Below are positions 9,190-27,420 of a stretch of 64,000 bases of DNA, one piece after another. Where the stretch lies: NCBI RefSeq assembly GCF_030013595.1, contig NZ_CP122770.1; one strand, given 5' to 3'. The stretch comes from Escherichia coli. GTDB taxonomy: Bacteria; Pseudomonadota; Gammaproteobacteria; Enterobacterales; Enterobacteriaceae. The position numbers and the translations under genes were made by a program. The notes beneath the pieces are model-generated. The model searched no databases. It was given only the letters and a program-made list of their open reading frames with translations, and was not told the DNA's origin. Numbering within the stretch: position 1 is the stretch's first letter; every line of letters begins with the position of its first letter.

Positions 9190-9545
9190 CCGGGTCAGCC
9201 AGGTCATTTCCCGGAGGAGCGAAGCTCCTTCTGCCGTCCGGGTCTTCGGGGATTTCCCCGCAGTGGACCTTTCCGACGGGGGACGCTCACCACGTCACGG
9301 GGCAGTTGTCCGGGGGCAGACGCAAAAGTTTTTGACGCCTGCGGCAAAAAGTTTTGTGGCTGGTACATCTCTCCCCTGGACGACTGAAACGGGATGTGGT
9401 CATGTATGTACCCCCGGAAAGTCCGTCTGCGGAGAACAGGCCGCAGTGCGGCGGCAGACAGGCAGAGACAGCTGCGCCATCAGGCGCAGTGGCCTTACAC
9501 ACCGTAAGGTGTGCAGGGAGCGCCGCATACGGCGCGACTGAAGAA
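9190..9545. repeat. GC-rich hairpin repeat family 1, copy 1 (Frpo/ssi-like single-strand promoter candidate)
   Basis: ~80% identical by eye to 12105-12615 and 19145-19655; internal inverted segments; sits 5' of a minus-strand gene. Confidence 0.6.
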
Positions 9546-9742
9546 AAACGACGGCACAACAATGGCATGTGGTGGTCACTGGCACACCACTCCCGCACAG
9601 GTGAAAACAGAGAAAACCGCACGACATTTACAAGCAAAAAAAAGTAAAATTTCTTCATTTTTTTACACTTATTTATCGCGCTGATTTGGCAATTGTGATG
9701 ATAAAATAAAGTGAAGTTTTTTCACTTTTTCAAAGGTGTTTT

Positions 9743-9994
9743 ATGACCGGCTGGGAACTGCGAATCTGGCGAAAAAGCATGCTCTGGTCACGCGAAAAAG
9801 CGGCCAGAGAATTTGGCGTGACGCAGAGAACATGGCACGCCTGGGAAAATGCGGAACAGGTGGACGTCACCGTCTGGAGGACCACCCAGGCACTTTCAGT
9901 CCGTGACCTGCTGCCTCACATGCAGGGGATGCGTAAGGCAGATATCATCAGGCGACTGGAAAATGAACTGGGGGAAACGGCAGGGAATGTGTGA
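9743..9994 (+). CDS. Small HTH (Cro/XRE-like) DNA-binding protein
   Basis: 83-aa ORF with HTH-like SREKAAREFGVTQRTWHAWE; palindrome aaagtgaagttttttcacttt just upstream. Confidence 0.45.
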   Translation: MTGWELRIWRKSMLWSREKAAREFGVTQRTWHAWENAEQVDVTVWRTTQALSVRDLLPHMQGMRKADIIRRLENELGETAGNV

Positions 9995-10024
9995 GCGTGA
10001 TTCACAGCCTGGCTGAATGCCAGG

Positions 10025-10207
10025 CTACTGCTCATCAGGAAACAGCTTTTTCAGTTCTTCACCGGAAAGTCCCGTGACCTCCTGAATCCGTTCCGGCGGC
10101 CAGCCTATATCCCGAAGCCGGCAGGCTATTTCCCGCGCCACTTCAAGAGCCCCTTGTTTAAAACCCTCGTCGAAACCTTTCTGTATAAGACGTTCTGCAA
10201 TCGTCAT
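10025..10207 (-). CDS. Small protein homologous to the C-terminal domain of the adjacent Rpn-like protein
   Basis: 60 aa MTIAERLIQKGF...GLSGEELKK parallels Rpn C-terminus MTIAERLEQKGR...GLSDDELKK; starts right after Rpn terminator. Confidence 0.5.
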   Translation of the reverse strand: MTIAERLIQKGFDEGFKQGALEVAREIACRLRDIGWPPERIQEVTGLSGEELKKLFPDEQ

Positions 10208-10231
10208 GCTGTTTGCTCTGCTCCTGCTGAC

Positions 10232-10260
10232 AAAAAAAGCCCGGCATTTTGCCGGGCTTT
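10232..10260 (-). terminator. Rho-independent terminator after Rpn-like gene
   Basis: gcccggcaaaatgccgggc hairpin followed by T7 on minus strand. Confidence 0.65.
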
Positions 10261-10270
10261 GTGGTTCTCA

Positions 10271-24521: not shown

Positions 24522-24956
24522 TCAGTTGTTTTCGTGTGTGTTGTTTTTCAGCAGGGTGCGGGCCTGATTAATCACTGCCTGACGGCGGGTAACACATTCC
24601 GGGACGGCAAGGCCGTTATCACGGGCGGCCCATTCACGTTTCCACAGTGCCTGTTCAGCGGTCTGAATCAGGGACGCCAGCAGTTCAGCAGAGACGGTCA
24701 CCAGGCGGTTTTCGCTCACGTTGCTGATAATCTCCATCGCAGCGGCGGAAGAAATACCGGACTCCATCCGCTGGTCTTCCGGGATGTCCTCCAGGTGCGC
24801 CAGGACAGTCCTGATTTCATGATCGGTCAGAGAAATTTCCATACCGTCGGCCAGTGCCTGAATCTCTTCCGGGGACCAGATAAGCAGCATCAGCGGCGTG
24901 TTTCCCGGATACTTTGCTGCCAGCTCACGGCAGAGCGTTTCGCATGTTCCGTACAT
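24522..24956 (-). CDS. DUF1380-like protein, paralogue of 22390..22812
   Basis: 144 aa; conserved [16 protein letters not shown] motif. Confidence 0.5.
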
Positions 24957-24968
24957 TTCGTCTCCTCC

Positions 24969-25190
24969 TTAATCTTTGAAGCACGCATCCAGTTCAAGAA
25001 TTTCGGTATATGCCTCCATCAGGAGGCGGTTTGCGCGAAACAACGTCTGACGCACCAGACGTTCCGGCAGGGTGTCAGCATTAAAGCTGTACCGCCGCTC
25101 CATCTCATTCATGGTTGTACGCAGGTCGCACATGGCATTGGCCACCTCCGCCACTTCGGCGCGAAGTTTTTCGTGTCCGGCATAGTTCAT
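24969..25190 (-). CDS. Small hypothetical protein
   Basis: 73-aa ORF abutting methyltransferase gene. Confidence 0.35.
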   Translation of the reverse strand: MNYAGHEKLRAEVAEVANAMCDLRTTMNEMERRYSFNADTLPERLVRQTLFRANRLLMEAYTEILELDACFKD

Positions 25191-25874
25191 TTACGCAGCC
25201 TCCGGCATAAACCAGTCATCATTCGCGGCCCCCTGCTGCATGGCCCGTTGTACGGCAGCCAGTCGTTGCTGTCCGGCACGGTGATACTGCTCAAGCAGCT
25301 CGATACCGATATACCGGCGTCCGGACTGGAGGGCGGCAACGCAGGTTGAGCCGCTGCCTGCAAACGGGTCCAGCACAATTGCGTTCGGGTGTGTGAAGCT
25401 CTCAATCAGCGGTTGCAGGCTGGTAACAGGCTTTTCCGTCGGGTGATGATGATTGCCTGAATATTTCCAGCCCAGCACGTCCGGCAGCGGTTTTTGTGGC
25501 AGACGTGGACGGCCTTTTGCCAGGATGTAGGCGCATTCGTGGCGATAGCCCACATATGCGGCCTTCGATGTGTAGTTTTTGGTGAAGACCAGGTGACCAA
25601 CAACGCTGAATCCCGCATTTTTCCAGGCGGCCATAAAGCGATCGACGCGGTTCCAGCCGTAGAAGCTCACCATTAACGCGTCTTTTTTCAGCACGCGGAA
25701 CATTTCATTACAGGCCGGTTGCAGCCACTCATCGGTTTTATCGCCGGCGATGGTGCGCCCGGAACGGTCACGGAAACCGACGAGATATGGAGGGTCGGTG
25801 AGGATGAAATCAATGGCGTTATCAGGAATACGGGCCATAACATCGATGCAGTTACCGAGGACAAAACGGGACAT
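25191..25874 (-). CDS. Orphan DNA methyltransferase (N6-adenine/N4-cytosine, DPPY motif)
   Basis: 227 aa with ILTDPPYL and FAGSGST motifs; no restriction partner nearby. Confidence 0.8.
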   Translation of the reverse strand: MSRFVLGNCIDVMARIPDNAIDFILTDPPYLVGFRDRSGRTIAGDKTDEWLQPACNEMFRVLKKDALMVSFYGWNRVDRFMAAWKNAGFSVVGHLVFTKNYTSKAAYVGYRHECAYILAKGRPRLPQKPLPDVLGWKYSGNHHHPTEKPVTSLQPLIESFTHPNAIVLDPFAGSGSTCVAALQSGRRYIGIELLEQYHRAGQQRLAAVQRAMQQGAANDDWFMPEAA

Positions 25875-26258
25875 ACGAAACTCCTTCTCTTACAGAGGGC
25901 ACCGGGAGGGCACCCCTGTGGTGCCCGTTCCCCGCTGCCTGTGGGCTGTTCACCGCGTCCGGTAACGGGTCAGGCCGACCGTGGAATATCGCAGCCGTCG
26001 TCTTTTTGACGGCGAGAATATGCCGCGAAAGCGGCTTGAAGGGCGTTCATCAGAAAAGGGCGACGGGCTGGCGTACACTGTCACCGATGCCAGCCGGGAG
26101 CGGTAAAAGCGCCCGTCCCGTGCCCGGCCGGACGCGGGACACTGACCACAGGCAGCGTTTATGCCGCGCCGCGTCAGCCGGCGCAGTAAAAAGAGGAGCA
26201 CGGCGACATCCTTTGTCGGAAAAGAAACGGGCGGTTTCCCGCCCGTCTCCGTCATACT

Positions 26259-27185
26259 TCATCCGCCATAATGCGCCACATTGTCGACTATCCACGCAGG
26301 TCCGGTGACTTCCGGCAGCTCATCGTCATCTGTCGGGGAAGACCATTCCAGTTCCCCCCACAGCACATCAACGAGCTCTCCGCGCTCATACAACTGCCAG
26401 CCACAGAAATCACAGCCCTGTTCGGCATACCAGTGCTCCAGCGTGCAGCTGAAACGGCGGCTTAATTCTGCAATAACGTCGCTTTCCGGCTGACACCACG
26501 GCGTGTCGAAATCCACCTGAATGAAGTTGTCTCCCTGACTACTGATATTCACCTCATACCCCACAGGCCACTTCACGCCATACTGTTCCGTATACCAGTG
26601 ATATGCAGAAGGAACACCGTTCAGAACACCACCGTTAAAGCCATTCACTTCAACATCCAGGCGGGTGGGCAGAACCGTCAGCAGGTCAAACGGCATGGTT
26701 TTTTCCGGCAGTACGTTGTCACACAGACGGTTCCACCACACCGATACATCCTCGTTACTCCAGAAGCCACACCAGTCACCTCTTTTTGCGGTGAAAAGTG
26801 CGGTGATGGTATCCCTGACATCGTCCGGTAATCCTTCCCAGCGACACTGTCCAGTACCGCTCTGCAGCCAGAGTTTATGCAGCATCAGGCAGTTTTGCTC
26901 ATCCAGCAGTACACCGTCCTGCAGGTATGTCAGCCAGCGGGTGAACGCGATATTCTCCGGCGATACAACGCCACGCCCGGCAGCCGTCAGTCCGGGGCAT
27001 GGTTCAAACCGCACATCTTCAGTGGTCTGCAGAAGTCCGGCACTTCCGGCCAGAAACAGCTGAATACCTTCATTTGTGGCGCGGCGATAAAGCGGTGTGA
27101 CTGCACCGCTGGCCAGTCGTTTAATCTCAGCAATCTGTGCCGGTTCACCAGAAAAATGCATACGATTTGAGCACCAGTTTGGCAT
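26259..27185 (-). CDS. Conserved hypothetical leading-region protein (308 aa, Trp/Cys-rich)
   Basis: ATG at 27185 with GAGGAG RBS (MPNWCSNRMHFSG...). Confidence 0.5.
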   Translation of the reverse strand: MPNWCSNRMHFSGEPAQIAEIKRLASGAVTPLYRRATNEGIQLFLAGSAGLLQTTEDVRFEPCPGLTAAGRGVVSPENIAFTRWLTYLQDGVLLDEQNCLMLHKLWLQSGTGQCRWEGLPDDVRDTITALFTAKRGDWCGFWSNEDVSVWWNRLCDNVLPEKTMPFDLLTVLPTRLDVEVNGFNGGVLNGVPSAYHWYTEQYGVKWPVGYEVNISSQGDNFIQVDFDTPWCQPESDVIAELSRRFSCTLEHWYAEQGCDFCGWQLYERGELVDVLWGELEWSSPTDDDELPEVTGPAWIVDNVAHYGG

Positions 27186-27194
27186 GGGAATTCT

Positions 27195-27420
27195 CCTCTC
27201 ACATGCGGCCTCCATCAGGCCGTGCCGCACCTGTAACCGGGCGACCGCATACGAATGCAGGTGCGGCCCCGAAGCCGCAGCGCGTGGAGGAGGAACGACG
27301 AAACGTGACCGGGTGAGGAGGCCTGCGACAGCGACACACTTGCATCGGATGCAGCCCGGTTAACGTGCCGGCACGGCCTGGGTAACCAGGTATTTTGTCC
27401 ACAGAACCGTGCACAAAATG
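27195..27420. repeat. Diverged GC-rich hairpin element related to family 2
   Basis: Shares blocks gaagccgcagc, gaccgggtga, cttgcatc...agcccgg with family 2. Confidence 0.35.

Follow-up and report, generated by a model that had tools for sequence, protein, structure and literature searches.

The window (the whole stretch of DNA analysed, 64 kb) is the leading region of an IncI (ColIb-P9-like) plasmid, and six GC-rich hairpin units in it are very probably single-stranded DNA (ssDNA) promoters of this conjugative plasmid. The system is already known: the units are published ssDNA promoters (ssi/Frpo and the newer classes 2 and 3), and two families with differential early expression, as suggested in the first-pass annotation, were already published in December 2025. 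By-products of the analysis that go beyond the known system are minor.

The oriT nick motif was found on the plus strand, which reads ...AATTGCACATCCTGTCCCGTTTTTC in the nick region (MOBP nick consensus, YATCCTG/Y, the slash marking the nick). The genes nikA and nikB were assigned by annotation. The plus strand is thus the transferred (T) strand and templates the minus-strand genes, and the motif identifies T-strand entry as 5'->3', heading to higher coordinates. The class 1 units lie 1.5-11.7 kb 3' of the motif on the plus strand, and the target genes downstream of the units are all on the minus strand, which is the geometry demanded by a single-strand promoter reading. The nick motif and the six units are as follows.

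7745-7752, plus strand: oriT nick-region motif CATCCTG/T, next to the oriT inverted repeat and nikA
9212-9540, plus strand: ssi1, class 1 Frpo-type ssDNA promoter (putative), upstream of the DUF4942 gene (8314-9162, minus strand); 99.1% identity over 329 nt to ColIb-P9 AJ238399:1459-1787; MFE -100.8 kcal/mol, z = -9.4
12118-12443, plus strand: ssi2, class 1, upstream of a 144-aa ORF (11632-12066, minus strand) and then the 88-aa/Rpn block; 99.7% identity to AJ238399:4353-4678; MFE -102.9, z = -9.7
19155-19485, plus strand: ssi3, class 1, upstream of ssb (18561-19088, minus strand) and serving the operon ssb-DUF905-parB-like-psiB-psiA ('ssi3 operon', PMC10104558); 98.5% identity to AJ238399:11381-11711; MFE -106.7, z = -10.6
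13331-13569, plus strand: class 2 (ssp2-type) hairpin, 5' of ardA (12795-13295, minus strand); MFE -73.7, z = -7.5
23321-23559, plus strand: class 2 (ssp2-type) hairpin, 5' of klcA/ardB (22859-23284, minus strand); MFE -70.1, z = -6.9
27216-27381, plus strand: H-A, short class 2-like hairpin, 5' of the DUF1281 gene (26259-27185, minus strand, 308 aa)

Direct repeats were found where the first-pass annotation had placed them, and its separation of two distinct families was borne out by local alignment (z ~0 between them). The family 1 repeats (approximately 9190-9545, 12105-12634, and 19145-19676) share 82-92% identity, and the family 2 repeats (13303-13657 and 23293-23648) are about 86% identical over the whole unit and 96% in the core. 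Tight cores were folded as plus-strand ssDNA and compared with 100 dinucleotide shuffles. As had been anticipated, all six units folded better than 100/100 shuffles (family 1, z from -9.4 to -10.6; family 2, -6.9 to -7.5; H-A, -4.0). The plus strand was 10-19 kcal/mol more stable than the minus strand in classes 1 and 2, and the two strands were equally stable in H-A. When the whole window was scanned with GC correction, the strongest plus-strand folding signals were the family 1 sites. Compensated pairs numbered 28 of 117 in class 1 (3-9 in slid controls; 0/500 shuffles) and 26 of 55 in class 2 together with the short forms (3-8 in controls; 0/500; 90.9% of cells paired), which demonstrates a selected hairpin and says neither whether it folds as DNA or RNA nor in which strand. 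The count of G.T versus A.C pairs was uninformative or biased.

Downstream of each unit, at a distance of 30-70 nt, comes the start codon of a minus-strand gene, preceded by a strong Shine-Dalgarno sequence; promoters had been expected at such places. IncI, IncF, and IncFII(K) plasmids strictly preserve how the units are oriented and placed relative to the start codons, and the units occupy syntenic sites in >4,000-5,000 plasmid records. No conventional promoter facing the genes was detected inside any unit, and sigma-70-like sites were not enriched (9 found, 7.9 expected).

On alignment, family 1 is ColIb-P9 ssi1-3 (98.5-99.7% identity) and homologous to F Frpo: the class 1 units could be aligned with F Frpo1/2 at 67% mean column identity, in agreement with the Frpo/ssi match noted earlier. 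The names 'class 1' and 'ssp1' follow Masai & Arai 1997, Bates et al. 1999, Nasim et al. 2004, and Couturier et al. 2023. The position weight matrix (PWM) scan of five aligned class 1 sequences gave no convincing conserved -35/-10 pair, so for the class 1 boxes we rely on published statements; canonical boxes are reported for class 1-type hairpins in the available text of PMC9849209. The places of the family 1 units were as annotated, but not the 510-bp extent given to the second and third, since ssi measures 326-331 nt and the remainder is a separate module of about 190 nt.

12444-12634, plus strand: conserved GC-rich module distal to ssi2, not part of the published ssi
19486-19676, plus strand: second copy of the extension module, distal to ssi3

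The two module copies form a 92% repeat. pESBL has the module too, and in Klebsiella IncFII(K) it is conserved at about 70%. Seven of 20 pairs were compensated in an alignment of four sequences only, and an Rfam search returned no match. A group II intron begins about 30 nt past the second copy.

By sequence, family 2 is the promoter named 'class 2/ssp2/Frpo3' upstream of ardA and klcA ('Frpo3', bioRxiv 10.1101/2025.04.03.647016), and its proposed assignment to both antirestriction genes agrees with where the hairpins stand in pESBL and F, 5' of ardA and klcA. In Wen et al. 2025 (PMC12672017), the pESBL hairpins at these genes are classed as 'class 2' ssDNA promoters. Both window hairpins are 239 nt long. 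The 3' arm of the ardA hairpin carries a -35-like TTGCAT (13524-13529) and, at a 3-nt bubble, a -10-like TAAGAT (13545-13550), and transcription would start opposite about 13343. The same boxes are at 23513-23518 and 23534-23539 in the klcA hairpin. The ardA unit is 100% identical to ColIb-P9 NC_002122 over 13320-13580 (261 nt) and, along its full length with the divergent tail included, 91.6% identical to its pESBL counterpart; for the klcA unit, whole-unit identity is 96.9% with pESBL and 94.9% with F. The sole -35/-10 pair conserved on either strand is TTGCAT-15-TA(A/C)nnT, which in the 64 kb searched occurs on the plus strand only at the three class 2-type units. The promoter-like hexamers predicted for the folds were accordingly recovered in class 2 and H-A (TTGCAT-N15-TAnnnT), with none convincing by PWM in class 1.

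The class 2 spacer of 15 nt is short for sigma-70.

The family 2 repeats were confirmed, but their distal ends hold terminator-like hairpins of the upstream block.

13607-13625, minus strand: terminator-like hairpin GGCCATGCGGGGCATGGCC then a T-rich tail (gene strand), inside the family 2 repeat
23596-23614: second copy of the terminator-like hairpin, inside the family 2 repeat
23675-23693, minus strand: intrinsic terminator GGCGGGGTAAATCCCCGCC then TTTTT; closes the upstream block (273-aa ORF with its stop at 23701) and lies immediately before the klcA class 2 hairpin

H-A, which had been listed at 27195-27420 as a diverged family 2 member, shows similarity to family 2 above chance (local alignment, z = 10-11) and was found at E = 4e-6 by a profile of class 2 sequences only and at E = 5e-9 by a profile of short insect-metagenome forms. 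It has the basal stem and boxes of class 2 (TTGCAT, 27340-27345; TAACGT, 27361-27366) without the apical 60-100 nt or so. Its pESBL counterpart is 97.4% identical, and H-A is also present in F and occurs in about 4,400 plasmid records. These matches make H-A a truncated class 2 homologue, and it would be expected to act as a promoter. All six annotated units fold, but a seventh hairpin, unlike these in type, had been missed.

25933-26157, plus strand: H-B, branched T-strand hairpin, directly 5' of the methylase gene (25191-25874, minus strand, M.EcoGIX homologue)
26227-26246, minus strand: intrinsic terminator ACGGGCGG-GAAA-CCGCCCGT then TTCTTTT, between the DUF1281 stop and H-B

H-B showed no relation to the other units in the profile search. 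A 101-aa ORF annotated as 'hypothetical protein' overlaps it and is probably spurious. Both H-A and H-B are conserved in pESBL and F. The available text of Wen et al. 2025 (PMC12672017) gives only six ssDNA promoters for pESBL and describes class 3/ssp3 as 'located in 5' of M.EcoGIX'. Both hairpins are candidates for this class 3, with H-A the more probable: the wordings 'intergenic segment' and 'reconstitution of -35 and -10 boxes' fit it, as does yfdA parS inside the ssp3 operon. H-B, unrelated to the other units, fits the published account of class 3 in this respect, which H-A, as a class 2 homologue, does not. DUF1281, the gene that follows H-A, is the first of the methylase cluster. As an 'M.EcoGIX promoter', H-A would need read-through, because a strong terminator (26227-26246; -23.7 kcal/mol as RNA) parts DUF1281 from the methylase gene. 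For H-B there are two readings, the published class 3 or an undescribed element. If H-A is class 3, the three classes collapse to two evolutionary families, because H-A is homologous to class 2.

In the proposed mechanism, the plus strand would be nicked at oriT (7751/7752) and enter the recipient 5' end first. Each unit, while still single-stranded, would fold back on itself, and the stem of the resulting long hairpin would restore a sigma-70 promoter in double-stranded form. In the class 2-type units, the 3' arm with TTGCAT-N15-TAAGAT would serve as the non-template strand, with the -10 box at the small bubble, and the 5' arm as the template. Host RNA polymerase would start near the hairpin base and transcribe leftwards into ardA, klcA, or DUF1281. 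The same role would fall to class 1 (ssi1-3) at three places: the DUF4942 block, the 144-aa/Rpn block, and the ssb-psiB-psiA operon. Class 1 transcripts may in addition serve as primers for synthesis of the complementary strand. After that strand has been made, the hairpins would become plain duplex and expression would stop, because the duplex form has no promoter facing the genes. The distal-end terminators would insulate each block, and anti-defence genes would be expressed at once on T-strand entry into a new cell.

The ssDNA-dependent transcription and the start sites in this scheme are carried over by analogy from near-identical published plasmids, and the exact start positions are predictions, placed near 13343, 23333, and 27223 and near the bases of the ssi hairpins. 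ssDNA-dependent transcription, or zygotic induction in recipients, has been published for ColIb-P9, pESBL, and F. Six operons are induced in pESBL, with 5' RACE starts in recipients matching the hairpin predictions (PMC12672017), early expression in F is abolished by Frpo1/2 deletions (PMC9849209), and ssp2 function is reported for F (bioRxiv 10.64898/2026.01.09.698686).

Class 2 could conceivably act mainly as a roadblock, delaying complementary-strand synthesis and prolonging the single-stranded phase for all downstream ssDNA promoters, with its promoter activity secondary; we regard this as possible but rather doubtful. In the available text of Fraikin et al., stalled 3' ends map to the ssp2 stem end, their resolution is UvrD-dependent, and ssp2 deletion causes a 2-fold drop in a PsiB reporter. 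Class 2 also has a highly conserved apical domain of about 100 nt, which in the alignment is missing from H-A and the insect Frpo*1/*3 and might be tied to the roadblock. According to the same text, however, ssp2 also drives klcA/ardB expression, and an ssp3 swap rescues part of the phenotype; the roadblock and promoter functions coexist.

It is improbable that the units are primarily priming sites for complementary-strand synthesis, with RNA polymerase or the primosome providing the primer and gene expression being incidental. Priming is part of their history, as reflected in the names 'ssi1-3': Frpo was first isolated as the ssiD priming signal (Nomura 1991; Masai & Arai 1997), and early conversion downstream of ssp1 promoters is rifampicin-sensitive in vivo according to the accessible text of Fraikin et al. 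Priming is, however, complementary to promoter function and not exclusive of it, and priming only does not fit the placement of every unit just upstream of a Shine-Dalgarno sequence and start codon. In the available pESBL report, RNA-seq and RACE give full operon induction from these sites, and long mRNAs over the downstream genes are already reported by start-site mapping; in that of Fraikin et al., ssp2 delays conversion instead of priming it.

It is very unlikely that the hairpins act as RNA, whether by terminating or insulating transcription or by forming structured 5' UTRs on read-through transcripts from conventional promoters. The repeats would then persist with each block needing such an RNA element. 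Covariation is blind to DNA versus RNA folding, and true terminator-like hairpins do occur in the distal family 2 parts and after DUF1281, but these are small and separate from the large hairpins. The conserved box pair is read on the plus strand only, in T-strand promoter orientation, and the predicted starts at the hairpin base would leave most of the hairpin outside the mRNA. No upstream conventional promoters were detected. In the published data, the genes show no expression in donors and a burst of it in recipients, and a Frpo2-acrIIA4 reporter gave hairpin-dependent expression from the transferred strand only (Samuel 2024).

Selfish or neutral dispersed repeats (REP/MITE-like, or recombination scars), palindromic by chance and lying in intergenic gaps, would account for the multiple copies at 82-96% identity and for the TnpB element and group II intron inserted beside two units, but this is scarcely credible given the strict conservation of orientation, position, and synteny described above, purifying selection with compensatory substitutions, and the lack of target-site duplications and transposase association.

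As ssDNA promoters, the units have functional parallels in the early promoters of phage N4, used by vRNAP with SSB, and in the ssoA-type single-strand origins of rolling-circle plasmids. In these, likewise, a folded single strand is recognised by RNA polymerase and activity is lost as duplex. Unlike the window units, the N4 promoters are small 5-7-bp hairpins used by a phage-encoded polymerase and the sso elements yield primers only, with no sequence relationship to the units.

The closest relatives are conjugative plasmids. The class 1 units share order, spacing, and downstream genes with ColIb-P9 ssi1-ssi3 and have the long hairpin in common with F Frpo1/Frpo2 (ssiD); there is essentially no difference from ColIb-P9 and F, apart from the extra module beyond ssi2 and ssi3. 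Family 2 aligns end to end with the pESBL class 2 hairpins (Wen et al. 2025), where the genes served are identical, and with F ssp2 5' of klcA/ardB (Fraikin et al. 2026), and it is 81-82% identical to the insect-metagenome candidate Frpo' 4 (Samuel et al. 2024). Relative to pESBL, a TnpB (IS200/IS605-family) element adjoins the window ardA copy from about 13690 and replaces the pESBL 198-aa gene; the ardA hairpin itself is intact beside it.

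The 19-kb region that holds the hairpin units was matched by more than 5,000 enterobacterial plasmid records, the closest being an IncI-gamma/K1 plasmid (97.4%). In the annotation of that record, the minus strand carries almost all of the leading-region genes (DUF4942, Rpn, ardA, psiA, psiB, ParB-like, ssb, klcA, DNA methylase, and DUF1281), and the same gene order was found in pESBL. The repZ pseudoknot of IncI replicons was located in the window at 47388-47536 (Rfam). About 0.9 kb from it, a C4 antisense RNA was matched at 48389-48476 (plus strand; 77.5 bits, gathering score 45; Rfam). 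C4 is an immunity RNA of the P1/P7-phage type; the match here sits on an IncI plasmid. The transfer functions were placed as follows.

Transfer functions bordering the leading region
4619-7745: nikB and nikA, left of the leading region (annotation of the closest record)
7745-7752, plus strand: oriT nick-region motif, ...AATTGCACATCCTG/TCCCG (slash, nick), which adjoins the oriT inverted repeat

The MOBP nick consensus is YATCCTG/Y, and the plus strand was taken as the transferred strand (T-strand) because the motif on it fits this consensus. Judged by the motif, the plus strand would enter the recipient 5' to 3' toward higher coordinates and would be the template for the minus-strand genes.

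The first-pass annotation had described six GC-rich hairpin units in two families upstream of these genes. A repeat finder recovered both families at the same places. Family 1 had three copies, of which b and c shared blocks of 260 and 209 nt (87-92% identity), and cores of 60-72 nt were common to all three; family 2 had two copies (93-96% identity). In pairwise alignment, the two families were unrelated (local-alignment z about 0 against shuffles), and the unit at 27.2 kb (H-A) was akin to family 2 above chance (z = 10-11).

Hairpins and associated features
9212-9540, plus strand: family-1 unit a, ssi1, 99.1% identical to the ColIb-P9 reference
12118-12443, plus strand: family-1 unit b, ssi2, 99.7% identical to the reference
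19155-19485, plus strand: family-1 unit c, ssi3, 98.5% identical to the reference
12444-12634 and 19486-19676, plus strand (T-strand): GC-rich extension module of about 190 nt, copies 92% identical
13331-13569, plus strand: class-2 (family-2) hairpin 5' of ardA, from the fold
23321-23559, plus strand: second class-2 hairpin, 5' of klcA, from the fold
27216-27381, plus strand: H-A, 5' of DUF1281
25933-26157, plus strand: H-B, 5' of the methylase gene
23693-23675, 23614-23596, and 13625-13607, gene strand: terminator-like hairpins in the distal parts of units
26246-26227, minus (gene) strand: strong intrinsic terminator, ACGGGCGG-GAAA-CCGCCCGT then TTCTTTT, -23.7 kcal/mol
25950-26255, minus strand: 101-aa ORF over H-B, Arg-rich low-complexity peptide

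The six cores were folded as single-stranded DNA (plus strand, DNA energy parameters, 100 dinucleotide shuffles each). Folding energies ranged from -48 to -107 kcal/mol, each lower than 100/100 shuffles. Family 1 reached z-scores of -9.4 to -10.6, family 2 gave -6.9 to -7.5, and H-A gave -4.0; for families 1 and 2, the plus strand was 10-19 kcal/mol more stable than the minus strand. Repeat finding, alignment, and folding thus upheld all six units. In a homology-free, GC-corrected sliding MFE scan, the most extreme plus-strand signals of the 64 kb were the family-1 sites; oriT, the rep region, and a segment at 25921-26160 (H-B) were also flagged. Class 2 and H-A barely registered, so the scan is insufficient as a sole test. 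No Rfam family was matched by the units or the extension module at gathering or permissive thresholds.

Family-1 units were compared with the ColIb-P9 ssi sequences from AJ238399 listed in Samuel et al. 2024 (supplementary file 4, PMC11541004), and by sequence identity they are ssi1, ssi2, and ssi3 (class 1). The ssb-psiB-psiA block has been called the 'ssi3 operon' (PMC10104558). Two Frpo copies of the F plasmid aligned with ssi1-3 at 67% mean column identity. In the consensus hairpin, 28/117 pairs were kept via changes on both sides, against 3-9 in slid controls (3' partners moved by 1-3 columns), and none of 500 column shuffles reached the observed values. The promoter-like hexamers sought in the folded units were present in class 2 and H-A (TTGCAT-N15-TAnnnT); in class 1, a PWM scan of both strands gave no convincing conserved -35/-10 pair. 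No convincing class-1 boxes came to light on inspection by eye either, whether in the two arms, in the 10-nt bulge, or in the Frpo2 fragment that is functional in Samuel's construct. Canonical boxes are reconstituted in class-1 hairpins according to the accessible portions of the published papers (PMC9849209). Beside ssi1, an A/T-rich spacer (9560-9742) separates the hairpin from a divergent HTH regulator gene (9743-9994, plus strand); it has weak sigma-70-like matches (9621-9650, plus; 9725-9698, minus) and may serve as a conventional divergent promoter region alongside the ssDNA promoter.

The extension module follows ssi2 and ssi3 and is absent after ssi1. The 510-bp extent first given to units b and c took in this module, which lies outside the published ssi. 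The module is kept in pESBL, is about 70% identical upstream of ssb in Klebsiella, and shares only its first ~45 nt with F. It forms three small hairpins, in which 7/20 pairs look compensated among only four sequences, including the Klebsiella plasmid. About 30 nt past the ssi3 copy, between the klcA block and ssi3, a group II intron begins (19706-22004, plus strand; Rfam D1-D4 at 19706-19855, domains V-VI at 21928-22004, ltrA at 20256-21923), in the T-strand sense and antisense to the leading genes.

For the IncI1 plasmid pESBL, the accessible text of Wen et al. 2025 (PMC12672017) reports strong induction of six operons in recipients, with a large ssDNA hairpin predicted ahead of each, and start sites of all six promoters mapped by 5' RACE. 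The hairpins are sorted there into class 1 (ssi1-3), class 2 (two similar hairpins 5' of ardA and klcA), and class 3 (one hairpin 5' of M.EcoGIX). Class 2 is the 'ssp2' of Fraikin et al. 2026, which in F stalls complementary-strand synthesis until resolved by UvrD (bioRxiv 10.64898/2026.01.09.698686), and the 'Frpo3' of a third, independent preprint (bioRxiv 10.1101/2025.04.03.647016). Samuel's candidate Frpo' 4 is 81-82% identical to class 2 and is the same element.

The base of the class-2 hairpins is a perfect 15-16-bp stem, GGTGCCGTGCCTCCAT with ATGGAGGCACGGCAC. On the 3' arm of the ardA hairpin, TTGCAT (13524-13529) lies in duplex, and 15 nt past it TAAGAT (13545-13550) lies at a 3-nt bubble facing AAA. 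With the 3' arm as non-template and the 5' arm as template, transcription is predicted to exit the hairpin base toward ardA, and the ardA transcript would begin opposite about 13343, which is 48 nt ahead of the ATG and a little upstream of the SD GGAGGA. In eight diverged class-2-type sequences, the hexamers were TTGCAT and TAAGAT, TAACGT, TAAAGT, or TACGAT; positions 1, 2, and 6 of the -10 box (T, A, T) are thus invariant. This was the only conserved box pair on either strand in the PWM scan, and TTGCAT-N15-TAnnnT occurred three times on the plus strand of the 64 kb, exactly in the three class-2-type units. A generic dsDNA promoter scan found no promoter facing the genes within any unit and no enrichment of sigma-70-like sites (9 observed, 7.9 expected); because it demands a 16-18-nt spacer, it is blind to boxes 15 nt apart and serves here as a negative control for conventional promoters only. 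From the terminator-like hairpins in the distal parts, the order within each unit would be the terminator of the previous block, the hairpin promoter, and the 5' UTR.

Other features were seen around these units. The motif GGCGAC(T/A)TCCTT(T/A) lies distal to both class-2 hairpins and H-B (13640-13660, 23630-23650, 26200-26215) and also occurs in Samuel's Frpo' 4 and Frpo* 3; a terminator-type hairpin comes next at the klcA and H-B copies. A 40-nt repeat (12713-12752 and 22124-22163, 85% identical) forms the hairpin GGCAGGC-(G/T)TAA-GCCTGCC and may be another block-end terminator or insulator, since one copy is just past the ardA stop codon. The distal end of the ardA unit is abutted by a TnpB-only IS200/IS605-family element (about 13690-15010; tnpB ORF 13743-14924, minus strand); the window and pESBL part at about 13690, and pESBL carries a 198-aa gene in place of the element. 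IS200/IS605-family elements transpose via ssDNA, so insertion beside a T-strand hairpin may be non-coincidental.

H-A had been listed as a diverged member of family 2. The intergenic segment that precedes DUF1281 in pESBL shares 97.4% identity with it; H-A is also present in F and was found in about 4,400 plasmid records. H-A aligned with class 2; the diverged class-2 copy of a Klebsiella IncFII(K) plasmid matched its 3' arm (78%, E = 6e-12), and two candidates that Samuel et al. list with low certainty, Frpo*1 and Frpo*3, also link the two. An alignment of eight sequences formed a continuum with a common basal stem, boxes, and a GA(A/C)CGGGTGAG motif, in which short forms are without 60-100 nt of apical domain. 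For class 2 with the short forms, 26/55 pairs were compensated (3-8 in slid controls), 90.9% of cells were paired, and 0/500 shuffles came up to these figures. A profile built from class-2 sequences alone found H-A (E = 4e-6, 5' arm colinear), and one built from two short insect forms found both class-2 units (2e-11, 4e-10) and H-A (5e-9), with nothing further in the window below E = 0.6. Alignments, compensated pairs, and profile matches together show that the label was right. By these comparisons, class-2-type promoters appear to be modular. A GTGCCGTG...CACGGCAC-type stem carrying TTGCAT-N15-TAnnnT would form their conserved basal promoter module, and a highly conserved apical domain of ~100 nt, equivalent to 13403-13500 in the window, would be optional. 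The apical domain may be the part behind the ssp2 replication roadblock, in which case the short form would be a naturally occurring variant that lacks the roadblock.

H-B is a branched 225-nt T-strand fold (-68.0 kcal/mol, z = -6.2) that immediately precedes the methylase gene, whose ATG is at 25874. It is conserved: alignment with the copies in pESBL, F, and Klebsiella IncFII(K) gave a mean column identity of 88%, compared with 47% identity for the neighbouring DUF1281 protein between the window and Klebsiella. More than 5,000 plasmid records contain the hairpin at an identity of at least 95%, and most of those sampled annotate a 'hypothetical protein' there. The 101-aa ORF over H-B was rejected as a real gene: its product is Arg-rich and of low complexity, and indels break the reading frame in the Klebsiella copy, where no CDS is annotated. 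A second, diverged copy lies directly upstream of DUF1281 in the Klebsiella plasmid, so the H-B type is a dispersed unit 5' of different gene blocks. Six pairs were compensated, against 0-1 in slid controls (four sequences, three near-identical). A profile search detected no relation to the other hairpin classes, and no convincing sigma-70 boxes were found in H-B. The terminator at 26227-26246, overlooked by the generic terminator scan, sits between the DUF1281 stop codon and H-B, which suggests that the methylase block is transcribed as a unit apart from DUF1281.

Seven conserved T-strand hairpins were counted here, against six promoters described for pESBL, so H-A or H-B would be an element without a description in the accessible published text. 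If H-B is not the class 3 promoter already published, it is an undescribed element. It is somewhat more probable than not that class 3 is H-A. From the position-coded gene names, yfdA in F presumably has its start at 53.x kb, level with H-B or upstream of it. In favour of H-A, Fraikin et al. put a parS site 'adjacent to yfdA' inside one of only four F operons (bioRxiv 10.64898/2026.01.09.698686), the strength of ssp3 was reported as 'equivalent' to that of ssp2, and the accessible text of Wen et al. 2025 (PMC12672017) speaks of 'intergenic segments' and 'possible reconstitution of -35 and -10 boxes'. The description of class 3 there as 'different from all' favours H-B. For the combined proposal, that H-A or H-B is undescribed and that class-2 promoters are modular with the apical domain possibly the roadblock part, we see an even chance.

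The published ssDNA-promoter mechanism is the best-supported reading of these units: the T-strand would fold so that a stem imitates a duplex sigma-70 promoter, host RNA polymerase would read along the template arm and on into the block downstream, and complementary-strand synthesis would abolish the hairpin and switch the promoter off. Priming of the complementary strand (class 1) and the replication roadblock (class 2) are added published roles, not alternatives. Covariation is evidence for a selected hairpin and does not tell the acting molecule or strand; counting G.T against A.C pairs as a strand indicator is uninformative for class 2/3, with stems that are almost purely Watson-Crick, and biased for class 1, with a structure predicted on the plus strand. 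Action of the hairpins at the RNA level is disfavoured, as is the reading of the units as selfish repeats, because the boxes are strand-specific, the units keep the same placement and orientation ahead of start codons in IncI, IncF, and IncFII(K) plasmids alike, the terminators are small hairpins in their own right, and published expression is donor-silent and recipient-induced. The ssDNA promoters set the genes expressed in the first minutes after entry of a resistance plasmid and are therefore a control point for plasmid establishment; the early functions concerned are anti-restriction, SOS inhibition, SSB, and methylase.

The value of the finding is confirmation, the published architecture, including the two-family split, having been regained from sequence alone. 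The homology of H-A with class 2, the unaccounted seventh hairpin mis-annotated as a protein, and the extension module would refine the three-class scheme if confirmed; with the possible apical roadblock domain, they are modest leads. Knowledge of class 1 dates back to 1997-1999, and that of class 2/3 to 2024-2025. The proposal of Frpo/ssi-type ssDNA promoters in two families agrees with these systems: family 1 is ssi1-3 (98.5-99.7%), and family 2, proposed to precede both antirestriction genes, aligns with the pESBL hairpins 5' of ardA and klcA. The alignment runs end to end (91.6-96.9% over whole units), the F hairpin is 94.9% identical to the klcA copy over the whole unit, and the ardA hairpin matches ColIb-P9 at 100%. 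The published start-site mapping was thus made on a plasmid whose units are 92-97% identical over full length.
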